This document shows positions 17,344 through 36,234 of a DNA stretch of 64,000 nucleotides, piece after piece. Numbering within the stretch: position 1 is the first letter of the stretch; every line of letters starts with the position of its first letter. Source of the stretch: Candidatus Yanofskybacteria bacterium (GTDB taxonomy: Bacteria > Patescibacteriota > Minisyncoccia > 2-02-FULL-40-12 > GWA2-44-9); NCBI GenBank assembly GCA_903830625.1, contig CAIKUK010000015.1, positions 37 through 64,036 on the forward strand, read 5' to 3'. Both the position numbers and the translations under genes were made by a program. The notes below the pieces were generated by a model, which was not told the DNA's origin, did not search any database, and was given only the letters and a program-made list of their open reading frames with translations.

Positions 17344-17403
17344 GACCAGGTAGTGAAAGTCCGACTGGGTTTGAGAAGCGACGAATAATCACTATTACTG
17401 GTC
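17344..17403. repeat. Inverted-repeat element, family B, copy a (GGTAGTGAAAGTCCGAC ... CACTATTACTGG)
   Basis: Shares its 5' and 3' arms with the copies at 27183 and 35823. This copy is the most diverged. Confidence 0.5.
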
Positions 17404-17458
17404 AATGTACATAACAAGAAATTCGATAGTGCGTGTTTAGGTCTCAAACCTAAGGAGC

Positions 17459-18391
17459 ATGTCGGACTTCTACTACCTGGTGGACTTGAAAACGCTCAAA
17501 ATTCAATACTTGGAACACCTGGAAATCGAAAAGAACCGTTCACCTAAAACGCTCGAGAACTACAACCGGTACTTAGATCGGTTTCTGCAATTTGCTAAAG
17601 TAACTAAGCCGCATGATCTCGATGGTGAGAGGATAAGGCAGTACCGGCTGCACTTGAATCGTCTCACTGATAATTACGGACAGCCCCTGATGAAAGTTAC
17701 CCAGAATTATCACATTATTGCCCTCCGAAATTTTTTGAAATACCTGGCCAAGAGGGGAGTGAAAAGCGTCTCGGCAGAAACCATTGAACTGGGCCGGGCC
17801 GAGGACCGCCACGTCACTTTTCTGGAGCACAGCGAGCTGGACCGGTTGCTCAATGCCCCGGAAGGTTCGGATCTAAACGCCCTGCGCGACCGAGCTATAT
17901 TGCGAATGCTGTTTTCAACGGGCATGCGCGTCTCCGAACTTTGTTCCATGGACCGCAGTAAGATTGACTTGAAGCGAGGTGAGCTTTCAGTGCTCGGCAA
18001 AGGCCGAAAAATCAGATTGGTTTTCTTGTCGGAAGACGCTAAGGACCAAATCGGCCAATATATCGCCAAGCGGACCGACGTGGACGAAGCCTTATTTATC
18101 CGCATTCCGAAAAGCAAGAAATTTTCCAAAGATTCCGACTTGCGCCTCACGCCCCGTTCAATCCAGCGCATCGTCCAAAAATACGCTATTAAAGCCGGCA
18201 TCATCGGCAAACATGTTTCGCCTCACACCTTGCGTCATAGTTATGCCACCGATCTACTCCGCAACGGCGCCGACATCCGTTCCGTCCAAGCCATGCTCGG
18301 CCATTCTTCGGTCACGACCACTCAAATCTACACCCACGTCACCGATACCCAGCTCCGCGAAATCCATAAAAAGTTTCATGATAAGAAATAA
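17459..18391 (+). CDS. xerC: Tyrosine recombinase XerC/XerD family
   Basis: 310 aa. N-terminal core-binding domain and C-terminal catalytic RHRY region (HTLRHSYATDLL...LGHSSVTTTQIYTHV). Confidence 0.8.
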   Translation: MSDFYYLVDLKTLKIQYLEHLEIEKNRSPKTLENYNRYLDRFLQFAKVTKPHDLDGERIRQYRLHLNRLTDNYGQPLMKVTQNYHIIALRNFLKYLAKRGVKSVSAETIELGRAEDRHVTFLEHSELDRLLNAPEGSDLNALRDRAILRMLFSTGMRVSELCSMDRSKIDLKRGELSVLGKGRKIRLVFLSEDAKDQIGQYIAKRTDVDEALFIRIPKSKKFSKDSDLRLTPRSIQRIVQKYAIKAGIIGKHVSPHTLRHSYATDLLRNGADIRSVQAMLGHSSVTTTQIYTHVTDTQLREIHKKFHDKK

Positions 18392-18392
18392 C

Positions 18393-18420
18393 TAAAATCC
18401 GCCGATGAGGCGGATTTTAG
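18393..18420. terminator. Bidirectional terminator hairpin between xerC and the convergent small gene
   Basis: AAAATCCGCC-gatg-AGGCGGATTTTA. Confidence 0.55.
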
Positions 18421-18479
18421 GGCGCGCCAAACGCGCTTCAATTAGTATTGTAAGAATTTACCGGGTCATTCTAGCCAGA

Positions 18480-33503: not shown

Positions 33504-33516
33504 AAGATAGATATTA

Positions 33517-34269
33517 ATGAATTCGGCAATCATTCTTTCTGTTATTGGCGGATTGATTTGGGGCAGTTTTTTAAACGTGCTCCTGTGGCGCTTGCCCGAA
33601 GAGAAGAGTATCGGCGGACGATCCCATTGCCGGGATTGCCACCATCTTCTGGCTTGGTACGACCTAATCCCAGTCTTAAGTTTTATCGTCCTTAAAGGCC
33701 GATGCCGGTATTGCCATACTCCAATTCATATTAGATACCCAGTAGTTGAAATCAGTACCGCTACTGTGCTGGCCCTTTTTTTCGCCGTTCGCCAGCCATT
33801 ATTAGGCCTTGAAGTAGTCATGACTGTGTTCGCACTCCTGATTTTAACTAGCCTGTTCTTTTTTGACTTATTCTATTTAGTTCTCCCTGATGTATTAATT
33901 TTCCCGGCCATTATAGTTTATGCGATTTACGACCTGATTAAAGCTGTCAACCCGTTTTCATACTTCTTAACCGCATTACTTTCGGCCGGTCTTTTTGCTA
34001 TACTTTACACAGTATCCCGTGGCAAAAAAATGGGCTTTGGCGATGTAAAATTGGCAATTTTAATAGGCTTGATTCTGGGATATCCATTTGGATTCTTGGC
34101 CATTGTCGGAGGTGTGTGGCTAGCGGCCATTGTCTCTATCATTCTTCTGGCCCTGAAAAAGGCCGCGCTTCAAGATGCCATTCCATTAGGTTCGTTTCTT
34201 GCTCTGGCCACCATTCTTTCTATTATTTTTTATCATGAAATACTTCCATTGGCTAAATTTTTCCAATAG
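33517..34269 (+). CDS. pilD: Prepilin peptidase PilD (A24 family)
   Basis: N-terminal Zn-binding CRDCHH...CRYCH and the catalytic region GFGDVKLAILIGLILG. Confidence 0.8.
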   Translation: MNSAIILSVIGGLIWGSFLNVLLWRLPEEKSIGGRSHCRDCHHLLAWYDLIPVLSFIVLKGRCRYCHTPIHIRYPVVEISTATVLALFFAVRQPLLGLEVVMTVFALLILTSLFFFDLFYLVLPDVLIFPAIIVYAIYDLIKAVNPFSYFLTALLSAGLFAILYTVSRGKKMGFGDVKLAILIGLILGYPFGFLAIVGGVWLAAIVSIILLALKKAALQDAIPLGSFLALATILSIIFYHEILPLAKFFQ

Positions 34270-34813
34270 TTCCAGCCTGCATAGGCAGACGGGATTTACA
34301 CTGGTCGAAATGAGTGTGGTCGCGGCAATTATTGGATTTTTAAGTACGGCACTCATTATTAATTTTTCCCGGACCAGAATTGATATCGACCAGAGCGCCA
34401 ATTTGATTATGGCGGCTGTTCGCGAAGCCCAGACCAAAGCTGTTTCTAGTACTCTCTATGCCGGTTATAATCCTTGTGGTTACGGCCTTCATTATGTTTC
34501 ACCGACTCAATTTATCATCTATGTCGGCCAAGACGCATCGACCGTGGTCTGTTCGAGTATTGCCAATAAAAATTATCAAGCCGGAAGAGACGCCCTACTC
34601 GGAATCCAATCATTCAGTGACCCTAATATACAATTCACCGCGCCATTCAACGATATTTTCTTTCTGCCCCCTAATCCAAAAACGTACCTGAACAACAACG
34701 CCTCGCTCAATCAACCCCCAATTACTATCCAAATCAGATCCATCGGCGGAGTTTGCCCTCAAAATTGCCGGACAGTCTATGTTTATCCGTCAGGGAAAAT
34801 TGAAGTCCAATAA
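34235..34813 (+). CDS. Pseudopilin / minor pilin 1
   Basis: GFTLVEMSVVAAIIGFLSTALII class III signal. The start is taken at MKYFH and overlaps the pilD end. Confidence 0.6.
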   Translation: MKYFHWLNFSNSSSLHRQTGFTLVEMSVVAAIIGFLSTALIINFSRTRIDIDQSANLIMAAVREAQTKAVSSTLYAGYNPCGYGLHYVSPTQFIIYVGQDASTVVCSSIANKNYQAGRDALLGIQSFSDPNIQFTAPFNDIFFLPPNPKTYLNNNASLNQPPITIQIRSIGGVCPQNCRTVYVYPSGKIEVQ

Positions 34814-35298
34814 TGTTTAAATTTTTAAATAATCAAAAGGGATTTACTCTAGTCGAGACACTTGTCTCGCTAGTTATTTTAACTGTGGCTCTTATTCCGA
34901 TTCTTAATCTTTCCACCAGCGCCGCCAGGGTCAGCGCAACAGTTCAAGATAACCTGGTGGCCTCCGGGCTGGCTCAGGAGGGGATAGAGGTTATCCGGGC
35001 GGTGCGCGACACCAATTGGTTCAATAACCGGGCTTTCGATTTTGGTTTAAGTAACGGCGATTACCGAGTGGAGTGGAATTCGACAGTCTTGCTTTCGCTT
35101 GGCAGCAATCCTGCCCTTAATCTAAATAACGGACAATATACTTACTCGGGCGGGACACCCTCTAAATTCAGCCGGACCATCACGATTACAAAAGTTAATG
35201 CGGGCGAATTAAAGGTTGTCAGTCAAATCAATTGGCTGGGACGGTCTAACGATGCCAAGTCCATCACGGCCGAAGATCATTTGTTTAATTGGAGATAA
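34813..35298 (+). CDS. Pseudopilin / minor pilin 2 (PilV/GspI-like)
   Basis: MFKFLNNQKG followed by FTLVETLVSLVILTVAL. Confidence 0.65.
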   Translation: MFKFLNNQKGFTLVETLVSLVILTVALIPILNLSTSAARVSATVQDNLVASGLAQEGIEVIRAVRDTNWFNNRAFDFGLSNGDYRVEWNSTVLLSLGSNPALNLNNGQYTYSGGTPSKFSRTITITKVNAGELKVVSQINWLGRSNDAKSITAEDHLFNWR

Positions 35299-35816
35299 TG
35301 TCTAGAAATTTAAATTCCCAAAAAGGATTCACTTTGGTCGAGGTTATCATATCGGCTTTTGTTTTTTCTATCATCGCTATTGTCGTAAGCGGATTGTTCG
35401 TCCAAATTTTAGCCCTGGAACGCCGAGCTTTTGCCTCCCAAAAAATTCAAGAGAACGGTCTTTTTATCATGGAACTGATGTCGCGCGAAATTCGCGTCAG
35501 CCAAATCCAAAATCAAGATTCTTTGAATTGCACTGCCACTTCACTGTCCATTATTCACCCCGTTAACGGCCCAGTGGTCTACTCGTTGAACAATGGCGTT
35601 CTCCAACGCACCGCGGAAGGCGTGGTTACCGATCTAAGTTCATCTACGGTCGCATTTTCACGATTGAATTTCTGTGTTATGGGTTCGGGACCAGCTGATG
35701 CCCAGCAGGCCAGAGTAGCTATTCTGGCTTCTATTCAAAATAAAACCGGCCGAGAAATATTAACCACTAGTTTTGAGACCACAGTCTCTTCCCGCGATGT
35801 TCAAACTGAATTCTAA
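35298..35816 (+). CDS. Pseudopilin / minor pilin 3 (PilW/GspJ-like)
   Basis: MSRNLNSQKG followed by FTLVEVIISAFVFSIIAIV. Confidence 0.65.
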   Translation: MSRNLNSQKGFTLVEVIISAFVFSIIAIVVSGLFVQILALERRAFASQKIQENGLFIMELMSREIRVSQIQNQDSLNCTATSLSIIHPVNGPVVYSLNNGVLQRTAEGVVTDLSSSTVAFSRLNFCVMGSGPADAQQARVAILASIQNKTGREILTTSFETTVSSRDVQTEF

Positions 35817-36234
35817 CCACAACCCCGGTAGTGAAAGTTCGAGCATTTCCCGACGGCGGAGCCGACTCGAACTTCTACTACCCGGGAACCAAAAGGGCTC
35901 CGTCATCATATTTACGGTCTTGATGTTGGGGAGTATGCTGGCCATAACCCTGGCCCTAGCCGGTATTTACTTGCCCAAGCTCCGAGCCGTGAATGATGCC
36001 GGGGCCGGCTCAATTGGAGCTATTTATGCCGCTGACAGCGCTTTGGAGTGGTGCATCTACACTAACCGCGGTAACCCGGTCCTACCGCCACCAGTGATGT
36101 CCAACGGCGCCACCTATAGAATCTTGCCCACAAGCCCCCCAGCGGCCGCGAATTGCACAGCTCTACCATTAAATAACCAAGCCGTTGGCACGTATCGCAA
36201 TGTCAGCCGTTCTCTGGAGGTAACCACGGAATAA
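35797..36234 (+). CDS. Pilin-like protein with an atypical long leader (PilX-like?)
   Basis: ...[26 protein letters not shown] resembles a prepilin signal but has no E5. The putative leader region is a copy of the family-B inverted-repeat element. The start is uncertain, with an alternative ATG near 35925. Confidence 0.35.
35823..35886. repeat. Inverted-repeat element, family B, copy c (CCCGGTAGTGAAAGTTCGAG ... CTCGAACTTCTACTACCCGGG)
   Basis: Short 64-nt copy embedded at the 5' end of the pilin-like ORF. Confidence 0.6.

Follow-up and report, generated by a model that had tools for sequence, protein, structure and literature searches.

Copies of Family B in the window

The window, a stretch of 64,000 nucleotides, contains three copies of a repeat (Family B), all on the plus strand, as detected by scanning for its arms. 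They lie at xerC, between pilM and pilN, and in a pilin-like open reading frame, and have in common the termini CCNGGTAGTGAAA...TTCTACTACCNGG. Two 17-nt arm patterns, each allowed up to three mismatches, gave 6 and 7 matches where 0.14 and 0.06 were expected, so that the three copies with common termini claimed in a preliminary description are real and far above chance. An extra match at 48724, which sits within a coding region, was rejected as a chance match. The three sites of the preliminary description stood, as did its very unequal interiors and its placement of the copies at the 5' ends of plus-strand genes (copy 3 being within its open reading frame); the end it gave for copy 1, 17403, had to be moved to 17480.

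Copy 1 (positions 17346-17480, plus strand) is a non-autonomous element of 135 bp with an interior of 95 nt, a 5' arm at 17346-17365 (CCAGGTAGTGAAAGTCCGAC) and a 3' arm at 17461-17480 (GTCGGACTTCTACTACCTGG). It is flanked on the plus strand by a target site duplication, TGGA, at 17342-17345 and 17481-17484. The upstream TGGA together with A17341 provides the original xerC ATG, and the present GTG start of xerC is formed by the terminal G of the element (17480) and the TG of the downstream TGGA. A TATAAT box at 17328-17333 is located 7 nt upstream of the original xerC start, a spacing of the leaderless type. Copy 2 (27185-27318, plus strand), a non-autonomous element of 134 bp with an interior of 93 nt, lies between pilM and pilN and has one additional base in its 3' arm (CTACTATCCCGG). 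Its duplication, TGG(C), is found on the plus strand as TGG at 27182-27184 and TGGC at 27319-27322; the original pilN ATG occupies 27181-27183, and G27318 plus TG forms the pilN GTG start at which this copy had correctly been said to end. Copy 3 (35824-35885, plus strand) has a length of 62 bp, made up of the two arms with a loop of 22 nt between them. The insertion keeps the frame and falls 27 nt from the start of the pilin-like open reading frame, in its N-terminal coding portion, where it adds 66 nt (22 codons) before the hydrophobic segment; its flanks are CAAC and GAAC, a duplication of (C/G)AAC. The search for target site duplications that had been suggested was thus positive for each copy.

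When folded, every window copy has at positions 10-11 of the arm stem one G·T pair and one A×C mismatch, and the inner stems differ by compensatory changes (TCCGAC/GTCGGA, ATTCGAC/GTCGAAT, and TTCGAG/CTCGAA). Copy 1 has a predicted folding energy of -56 kcal/mol (z = -6.3); z-scores for Family B ranged from -3.2 to -6.4, with both strands about equally stable. Within the window copies, no promoter of consensus type was detected, and upstream open reading frames in short copies had no consistent coupling geometry.

Empty sites in relatives

All three window copies are precisely absent from the syntenic loci of relatives whose PilM proteins are 88-89% identical. Alignment showed that copy 1 is absent from L263, L265, and L268; at xerC the relatives have TATAAT-N7/8-ATGGACTT with a single TGGA. 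Copy 2 is absent from L263, L265, L266, and L268. The pilM-pilN spacer is 44-73 nt in relatives vs. 216 nt in the window, and pilN begins there with TAATGGCnGATAAAGG (ATG GCn GAT, encoding M A D). Copy 3 is absent from L263, L265, and L266 by alignment. No Family B copies were found in the 13-21-kb syntenic loci of the relatives. The three window copies arrived recently.

Distribution, duplications, and start codons

The suggested search for further copies, a pattern scan of species-representative genomes, detected at least 117 loci, and 131 elements were analyzed. Nearly all of the loci were in metagenome-assembled genomes of Patescibacteria from many lineages, often with several copies per genome; contigs of GW2011_GWB1_40_14 contain more than 10. 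The short elements are 62-142 bp, non-coding and multi-copy (three per 64 kb in the window), and the genes that adjoin them are mutually unrelated.

Among the matches listed, 94 of 131 elements had an exact flanking direct repeat of 3-5 bp, which was 4 bp long in 81 elements (chance expectation, 0.4%), 5 bp in six and 3 bp in seven. The most common duplications in the 131-element set were TATG (40) and CATA (19) and the remainder were diverse, arbitrary sequences such as CTCA, AAAG, and CAGG also being seen. Tandem re-insertions with one TATG in common were present as well. Ninety-nine of the 131 elements (76%) adjoin an ATG, mostly that of a long open reading frame, and the start codon is therefore regenerated beside the gene; of all non-genic TATG/CATA sites, start codons account for only about 18%. 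Most of the remaining insertions are 4-40 nt upstream of the start of an open reading frame or within its first ~130 nt. Purifying selection in compact genomes, rather than targeting, could account for much of the start-codon bias.

The arms are ~21 bp and about 97% complementary outside of the fixed mismatch site. In the genome-scan set, the search pattern itself is partly responsible for the outer arm being invariant. Arm positions were paired in 93.5% of cases compared to 83.4% in shuffles, and there were 174 double-change cells vs. 33. The arm covariation whose examination had been proposed is therefore real, with paired arms above shuffles and compensatory inner-stem changes, but it reflects equally two terminal repeats kept identical, the element being double-stranded. 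Relative to the gene, the asymmetric arms are found in either orientation (68 vs. 31), so that this asymmetry alone does not set polarity. G:T and A:C mismatches were equally frequent in both orientations, and a strand-specific tolerance of G·U was absent. The interiors are unconserved, with a mean column identity of 37% when the arms are excluded, and the elements have no match in Rfam.

Elements that encode a GIY-YIG nuclease

No nuclease-bearing copy of Family B is present in the 64,000-nt window. Elsewhere, longer elements of 305-363 bp have Family B arms and a single open reading frame for an 85-amino-acid GIY-YIG nuclease, which occupies the entire interior exactly; nuclease-bearing copies and window copy 2 have at least 22 nt of arm in common, and a deletion intermediate of 204 bp exists. 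The open reading frames of the 305-309-bp elements matched the Pfam GIY-YIG family with E-values of 7e-19 and 2.7e-14 (PF01541, 68.3 and 53.6 bits vs. a cutoff of 22.6). Tyr5, Tyr16, Arg26, His30, and Glu62, which we take to be catalytic from what is known of I-TevI, were invariant in 36 and in 56 sequences. An AF2 model of the nuclease had a pLDDT of 94, and its nearest solved folds in Foldseek were UPF0213 BH0048 and Slx1 (query-normalized TM-score 0.68-0.70), with I-TevI also matched and with modest E-values of 1e-3 to 1e-1.

Homologs of 85-108 amino acids numbered 691, and all named sources were Patescibacteria or unclassified "bacterium." In at least 11 of 120 homologs the N-terminus, MP[GRSV]SE[TN]S.., is translated arm. 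A protein-based search of metagenomes provided 80 homolog loci for examination, and at least 63 of these had Family B arms or close variants around the gene. Both Family B arms were present in 30 of the 80, as units of 305-363 bp with TATG-type duplications and a host open reading frame at the 3' ATG; the same arms were swapped in a further 25, and nine had a related arm type. In nine of nine cases, one variant of the arms follows a well-defined clade of the protein. The nuclease was always co-directional with the host gene (never antisense), and often, in the canonical layout, its open reading frame is in frame with the upstream host ATG (M-P-G-S-E-N-S-T-A-I-M-F...). Among the loci fetched, short copies and the nuclease were seen together within a genome only in L176 and L178. 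Neither a longer open reading frame nor a DDE, HUH, serine, or tyrosine transposase was found within these arms at the 117 genome and 80 metagenome loci (about 1.2 Mb). No published description of this element was found.

Nature of the element and proposed mechanism

Family B is mobile, its insertions have target site duplications and are associated with start codons, and its short and nuclease-bearing copies have common arms. The window copies are probably non-autonomous (MITE) copies of a very small, Patescibacteria (CPR)-wide transposable element that bears a GIY-YIG nuclease when full-length. The preliminary description had offered a MITE as one of two alternatives, and the target site duplications, precise empty sites, more than 100 further copies at unrelated genes, and longer nuclease-bearing elements all agree with it. 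Its wording about the delivery of a 5' leader describes the outcome fairly, because the element comes to lie between the native initiation site and the regenerated start codon.

The full-length element is about 305-330 bp, with ~21-bp terminal inverted repeats that contain one fixed swapped dinucleotide and with a single nuclease gene. Insertion is accompanied by a 4-bp duplication, usually TATG, and falls overwhelmingly on a start codon or no more than one base away from it, such that one ATG remains upstream with the native initiation region and a new ATG, or G + TG = GTG, fronts the host open reading frame. The nuclease may then be produced from the initiation site that belongs to the host gene and may mobilize long and short copies alike. 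Since the nuclease is Slx1-like, it probably recognizes the arm hairpin or cruciform rather than a sequence. The host open reading frame could be translated from the regenerated start after ribosomes from the upstream ATG open the stem or, alternatively, from transcripts that would start inside the element. We infer the role of the nuclease as transposase, and likewise the reason that start codons are targets. An 85-residue GIY-YIG protein as the mobilizing enzyme, with arms recognized by structure and a lifestyle that parasitizes start codons by borrowing the host initiation site and returning a rebuilt start, is a tentative candidate, somewhat short of an even chance. GIY-YIG enzymes make breaks, and the known ones leave 2-nt 3' overhangs, not a 4-nt stagger.

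The strongest competitor is that Family B is a MITE of the usual sort, mobilized in trans by a DDE transposase of a conventional kind, with the GIY-YIG gene as a passenger or as a separate selfish gene with captured ends. Terminal inverted repeats with a fixed 4-bp duplication, as found here, are the signature of staggered DDE cuts; a duplication of 4 bp and ends that begin with CC would be in keeping with IS1380-, IS5-, or IS701-like elements, duplications of arbitrary sequence such as CTCA, AAAG, and CAGG are compatible with such an enzyme, and we know of no GIY-YIG enzyme that integrates or joins DNA. However, in about 1.2 Mb at the 117 genome and 80 metagenome loci, these arms were never seen around a longer open reading frame, the nuclease open reading frame takes up precisely the interior, such arms or near variants of them enclose at least 63 of the 80 nucleases of this clade, and the arm variant follows the protein clade in nine of nine cases. 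All of this counts against the conventional-transposase explanation, which is unlikely.

The other alternative in the preliminary description, a cis-regulatory RNA leader selected rather than mobile, whose closing helix hides the start codon, would explain the very stable folds (z of -3.2 to -6.4), the covarying arms, and the 3' arm adjoining the start codon. It is highly improbable as the primary nature of Family B, and as the element's origin it is largely refuted: target site duplications are present, the orthologous leaders of relatives at 88-89% protein identity have no element, interiors are unconserved and neighboring genes unrelated, the arms occur in both orientations with G:T and A:C mismatches equal between them, both strands fold alike, and Rfam has no match. 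That the similarity is a local artifact, either a gene or segment duplication or a REP/RAYT-type repeat, was suggested by the location of three copies within 19 kb on one strand. This explanation is refuted by the unrelated flanking genes, by the empty sites in relatives, and by the occurrence of copies across many lineages, on hundreds of contigs. At the loci surveyed Family B has no Y1/HUH gene associated with it, and the gene within the arms is that for the GIY-YIG protein.

Comparison with known systems

The Correia elements of Neisseria resemble Family B in size (100-150 bp), terminal inverted repeats, a short fixed duplication, high copy number, insertion polymorphism between relatives, and hairpins co-transcribed with neighboring genes. 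The duplication made by Correia elements is TA, and they are not known to favor start codons, whereas Family B has a 4-bp duplication, is on a rebuilt start codon in 76% of cases, and has a GIY-YIG partner instead of a DDE transposase. REP/REPIN sequences and their RAYTs are similar in that dispersed hairpin repeats accompany a single small nuclease-type gene that itself lies between inverted copies of the repeat, with repeat and gene conserved together over long periods. RAYTs, however, are Y1 HUH enzymes, and REPs are not known to have target site duplications and are mostly downstream of genes; the Family B enzyme is of the GIY-YIG type, and its elements have duplications and are located at gene starts. 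Rickettsia palindromic elements are 100-150-bp palindromes tolerated in frame inside genes, as is copy 3, but to our knowledge have no start-codon preference, defined 4-bp duplication, or associated nuclease gene. The attC sites of integrons are also imperfect palindromes with conserved pairing rather than sequence, fixed unpaired bases, and a very variable loop; their recombination, catalyzed by a tyrosine integrase, takes place at one fixed site, attI, and produces no duplication, and they are not dispersed at gene starts.

GIY-YIG homing endonucleases (I-TevI and the T4 seg genes) are likewise selfish elements whose sole protein is a GIY-YIG nuclease. Homing enzymes have a C-terminal DNA-binding domain, cut the empty allele, and spread by homologous repair without inverted repeats or duplications, whereas Family B insertions have target site duplications and lie at unrelated genes. 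The 85-amino-acid protein is a catalytic domain alone, with a fold nearer to Slx1/UPF0213 than to I-TevI, and scored 22 bits against the NCBIfam model grpIintron_endo (TIGR01453; cutoff, 56). Slx1 and bacterial UPF0213 (YhbQ-type) proteins are the best sequence and fold matches of the nuclease. Slx1 is a structure-dependent nuclease of branched or hairpin DNA, an activity that would suit arms that keep their pairing while their sequence drifts, but Slx1 and UPF0213 either serve in cellular repair or have no assigned role, and they are not known to be mobile or bounded by inverted repeats.

Implications

If this reading of Family B as a transposable element holds, CPR genomes, which are tiny, gene-dense, and thought to be poor in mobile DNA, host a pervasive mobile-element family that would have gone unnoticed because each copy is only 30-330 bp. 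Hundreds of "GIY-YIG nuclease family protein" annotations, and many 95-100-amino-acid MPGSE... calls and short hypothetical open reading frames upstream of genes, would then be element sequence, and the start codons of affected genes could easily be mis-set in annotation. The question arises how these genes are expressed despite a hairpin of -45 to -56 kcal/mol on the start codon in genomes where Shine-Dalgarno sites are rarely used. The element would also offer a candidate for a new transposition mechanism built on a structure-specific nuclease, one that an 85-amino-acid protein and a 30-bp hairpin make directly tractable. If the GIY-YIG protein mobilizes the element, no autonomous transposon smaller than the ~310-bp units would be known, and they would be the first class of transposons with inverted repeats and target site duplications to be built on a GIY-YIG nuclease.

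A related element in the window

The window also contains a related, non-Family-B element of 293 bp (39954-40246, plus strand) with perfect 20-bp terminal inverted repeats (ATCCCGCACATAAACGCTAT / ATAGCGTTTATGTGCGGGAT), and these arms differ from those of Family B. It encloses a GIY-YIG open reading frame (39976-40224) that is broken by an in-frame TAA at 40159-40161. The element lies between the end of gatA and the ATG of the next gene (40245) and is absent from two relatives, in which the distance from the gatA stop to the next ATG is 1 nt (L350) and 75 nt (L351).

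Family B copies and their empty sites

A search of the window with the two arm sequences, allowing up to three mismatches, bore out the three Family B copies of the preliminary description, all on the plus strand and far above the 0.14 and 0.06 matches expected by chance for the two arms. A weak fourth match, at 48724 within a coding region, was set aside as a chance match. The window belongs to a Paceibacterota/Yanofskybacteria-like CPR genome (ENA ERZ18646951, scaffold_76). Copy 1 (17346-17480, 135 bp) lies between rpsO and xerC, copy 2 (27185-27318, 134 bp) between pilM and pilN, and copy 3 (35824-35885, 62 bp) within the opening codons of a pilin-like ORF with ligA downstream. 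The limits originally given for copy 1 were wrong, its 3' arm being at 17461-17480. The copies have the termini CCNGGTAGTGAAA... and ...TTCTACTACCNGG; one arm carries GTGAAA and the other, read inward, GTAGAA. The folded form of each copy carries a G·T pair together with an A×C mismatch at positions 10-11, and the inner stem varies from copy to copy with compensating changes. Fold stability of all three was far above that of shuffled sequence on both strands. An Rfam scan of the whole window at gathering threshold, with a permissive scan of copy 1, returned only tRNAs and one chance snoRNA match, and the window copies are not members of any Rfam family.

Short direct repeats flank the copies (TGGA/TGGA, TGG(C)/TGGC, and CAAC/GAAC), answering the question of target-site duplications in the affirmative. 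In copies 1 and 2, an ATG lies immediately 5' of the element and a GTG at the 3' border consists of the element's final G and the flank. The syntenic loci of four other genomes were located through PilM homologues (88-89% identity). The alignments showed that all three copies were precisely missing from these loci, in which no Family B copy of any kind was found, and the window copies are therefore recent insertions. The empty pilN site reads ...TAATGGCnGATAAAGG, which corresponds to ATG GCn GAT, the empty xerC site reads TATAAT-N7/8-ATGGACTT, and the pilin-like gene of the relatives is without the 66-nt insert. The TATAAT box 7-8 nt before the xerC ATG (17328-17343) is conserved in the window and in three relatives, at the spacing expected for a leaderless mRNA. 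The evidence thus shows Family B to be mobile and non-autonomous, with a duplication of 4 bp, and the window copies are MITEs (miniature inverted-repeat transposable elements) on every structural criterion.

Distribution and insertion sites

A pattern scan of species-representative genomes detected at least 117 Family B loci, nearly throughout in Patescibacteria MAGs, including Parcubacteria, Saccharibacteria, Gottesman-, Yanofsky-, Doudna-, Moranbacteria, and others. Multiple copies in one genome were common among the matches listed. Some element-bearing contigs from binchicken MAGs (e.g., L158, L159, L167, and L168) are titled 'uncultured Gammaproteobacteria' or 'Bdellovibrionales'; either these are mislabelled or Family B extends outside Patescibacteria. 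Viral contigs gave 77 and 66 matches with two gap ranges, no more than expected by chance, and complementary inner arms were absent from every match.

Insertion sites were counted in 131 elements taken from the genome-scan loci. An exact flanking repeat of 4 bp was present in 81 elements, of 5 bp in six and of 3 bp in seven; the duplicated sequences included TATG (40), CATA (19), and many others. An ATG, mostly the first codon of a long ORF, adjoins 99 of the 131 elements, with the ORF downstream in 68 and upstream on the opposite strand in 31. Insertions occurred in registers -1 (NATG), 0 (ATGN), and +1 (TGNN, giving GTG), each of which leaves a start codon at both borders. The remaining insertions mostly preceded an ORF start by 4-40 nt or lay inside the first ~130 nt of the ORF, and some fall within GGAGG-like sites. 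These counts show a strong tropism for gene starts. In the same loci, start codons account for only ~18% of non-genic TATG/CATA sites, and a preference for TATG combined with loss of intragenic insertions predicts that ~18% of TATG-type duplications would be at start codons, vs. more than 90% observed. The bias may reflect targeting, selection, or both.

Tandem double insertions have a single TATG common to both units. The smallest units are 30-32 bp: the fetched locus L163 (1-132) contains a four-fold tandem array of 30-bp mini-elements (CCAGGTAGTG-loop-CTACTACCTGG) with CTTG between units, L216 has a 32-bp unit, and a 31-bp unit is nested within a nuclease-bearing element of L323. The final ~12 bp of each arm may suffice for mobilisation.

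Interiors were highly diverse in the 131-element set; the arms, ~97% complementary, co-varied strongly at positions 3 and 14-20. Selection on one strand as RNA was rejected for the arms: mismatches had no G·U bias on either strand, G:T and A:C being equally frequent. Invariance of the outer 13 nt in the genome-scan set is partly a product of the search pattern. A metagenome set (see below) is free of this bias because it was chosen by protein, and in it outer arm positions also vary pairwise (CCAGGAAGTG/CACTTCCTGG, CCAGGCAGTG/CACTGCCTGG, and CCCAGTAG/CTACTGGG). The interior of one element (L205, 4888-5015, minus strand) includes a tRNA-like 3' half (GGGTTCGATTCCCG T-arm), which may be captured sequence or an insertion beside a tRNA fragment.

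Long copies encoding a GIY-YIG nuclease

The fetched loci contained three longer elements with Family B arms. A single ORF occupies the interior of two of them, L176 (309 bp) and L178 (305 bp, flanked by TATG/TATG and ahead of a gene); the third, L242 (204 bp), represents a deletion intermediate. By its Pfam match (PF01541; E = 7e-19 and 2.7e-14), the enclosed ORF encodes a GIY-YIG catalytic domain; among solved sequences, the UPF0213 proteins BH0048 and EF2693 are closest to it. The 691 homologues are 85-108 aa long, and every match with a named source was labelled as Patescibacteria or an unclassified 'bacterium'. At least 11 of 120 among the homologues listed begin with MP[GRSV]SE[TN]S..., which is the ATG and the 5' arm translated.

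A protein-based scan of metagenome contigs detected 80 loci. Both Family B arms surround the ORF in 30 of these, in units of 305-363 bp with TATG-type duplications and a host ORF that starts from the 3' ATG. By a slightly different test, the GTGAAA arm came first in 29 loci and the same arms were swapped in 25. A related arm type (GTAATACAA/TTGATATAC) in nine loci corresponds to a clean protein clade. None of the 80 loci had a nuclease copy antisense to the host gene. The arm stretch common to the nuclease-bearing copies and window copy 2 is at least 22 nt. These results show that the ends of Family B are common to a ~310-bp element with a GIY-YIG nuclease as its sole gene, co-oriented with the target gene. 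The canonical layout is an ATG (the duplication), 30 nt of arm, and ATG TTC..., so that the nuclease shares the reading frame of the host start codon, as was the case in 17 of 31. The AlphaFold model of the nuclease is confident (pLDDT 94); among solved folds UPF0213 comes closest and Slx1 second, with I-TevI further off. Slx1 is a structure-directed nuclease on branched DNA.

The window holds a related GIY-YIG element of 293 bp (39954-40246), placed exactly between gatA and the following gene's ATG. Its perfect 20-bp inverted repeats are unlike the Family B arms in sequence, and its homologous ORF (39976-40224) is broken by an in-frame TAA codon. The element is missing in two relatives, where the gatA stop is 1 nt (L350) and 75 nt (L351) from the next ATG. 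Its repeat supplies three extra codons and a new stop to the window gatA.

Expression of target genes and proposed mechanism

Shine-Dalgarno-like motifs precede ~13% of first-ATG ORFs vs. 7% in shuffles, a crude estimate from long ORFs of the window and loci L144-L260 that suggests largely SD-independent initiation in these lineages. Displacement of a Shine-Dalgarno site was rejected, as SD-like motifs before the 5' ATG were not above shuffles, although these genomes seldom use such sites in any case. Targeting of leaderless transcription starts would fit the spacing at xerC and was rejected as a general explanation because a -10-like hexamer is so placed in only ~14 of 99 targets. As to a possible outward promoter inside the element, the extended -10-like motif TGG[TC]A was enriched in the gene-sense orientation (29 vs. 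5 of 94); general promoter-like scores were the same on both strands, and a consensus scan found no promoter in the window copies.

Coupling of translation at the host ATG to a uORF in the element was rejected, its geometry being irregular in the short copies. The TAG TGA of the 5' arm and the duplicated ATG raised the possibility of either programmed ribosomal bypass or excision of an intervening sequence, which was rejected as the primary explanation: the 5'-arm stops share the frame of the upstream ATG in just a subset of insertion registers, element length is not constrained to multiples of three, and duplications with arbitrary sequence show that insertion took place at the DNA level.

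We infer that the rebuilt start codon serves for expression of the host gene, and that the nuclease of long copies would be translated from the host gene's initiation site. The GIY-YIG nuclease may move both kinds of copy, short as well as long, through recognition of the hairpin or cruciform that the arms form. A possible landmark for the nuclease is the fixed double mismatch, and the conserved feature would be the pairing of the arms, not their sequence.

Relation to known systems

No long autonomous copy with a conventional transposase was found in the fetched loci, and on this ground Family B is not counted among the known IS families. It is not a REP/RAYT system, its partner enzyme being of the wrong class. 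Unlike GIY-YIG homing endonucleases, the protein is without a DNA-binding domain, the insertions are flanked by duplications, and the targets are unrelated. Duplication of the start codon and a GIY-YIG partner are unusual features. A literature search covering few subscription journals returned no relevant account of CPR MITEs, start-codon duplication, or GIY-YIG proteins with inverted repeats.

Other features of the window

Four copies of a further hairpin repeat family (CCCGCCTAAATTTTTA / TAAAAACTTAGGCGGG) are present in the window (3549-3583, 17229-17295, 28712-28746, and 62121-62155). The one at 17229-17295 is longer in its interior and falls within a part of the rpsO-xerC spacer that is missing from the relatives in the xerC alignment. 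Overlapping inverted repeats built on TGGTGACACTAGTGTCACCA are clustered at 11956-12077. The minus-strand ORFs at 19405-20157 and 23111-24112 have weak or faint LAGLIDADG_3 matches and adjoin tRNA genes; since relatives have HNH, GIY-YIG, or other genes there, the 19405-24112 stretch is a variable hotspot for homing-endonuclease-like genes. ARAGORN called a tRNA-Ser (anticodon ACT) at 24189-24279 that the Rfam tRNA model did not report at gathering score; the call may be spurious, or the tRNA unusual or degenerate.
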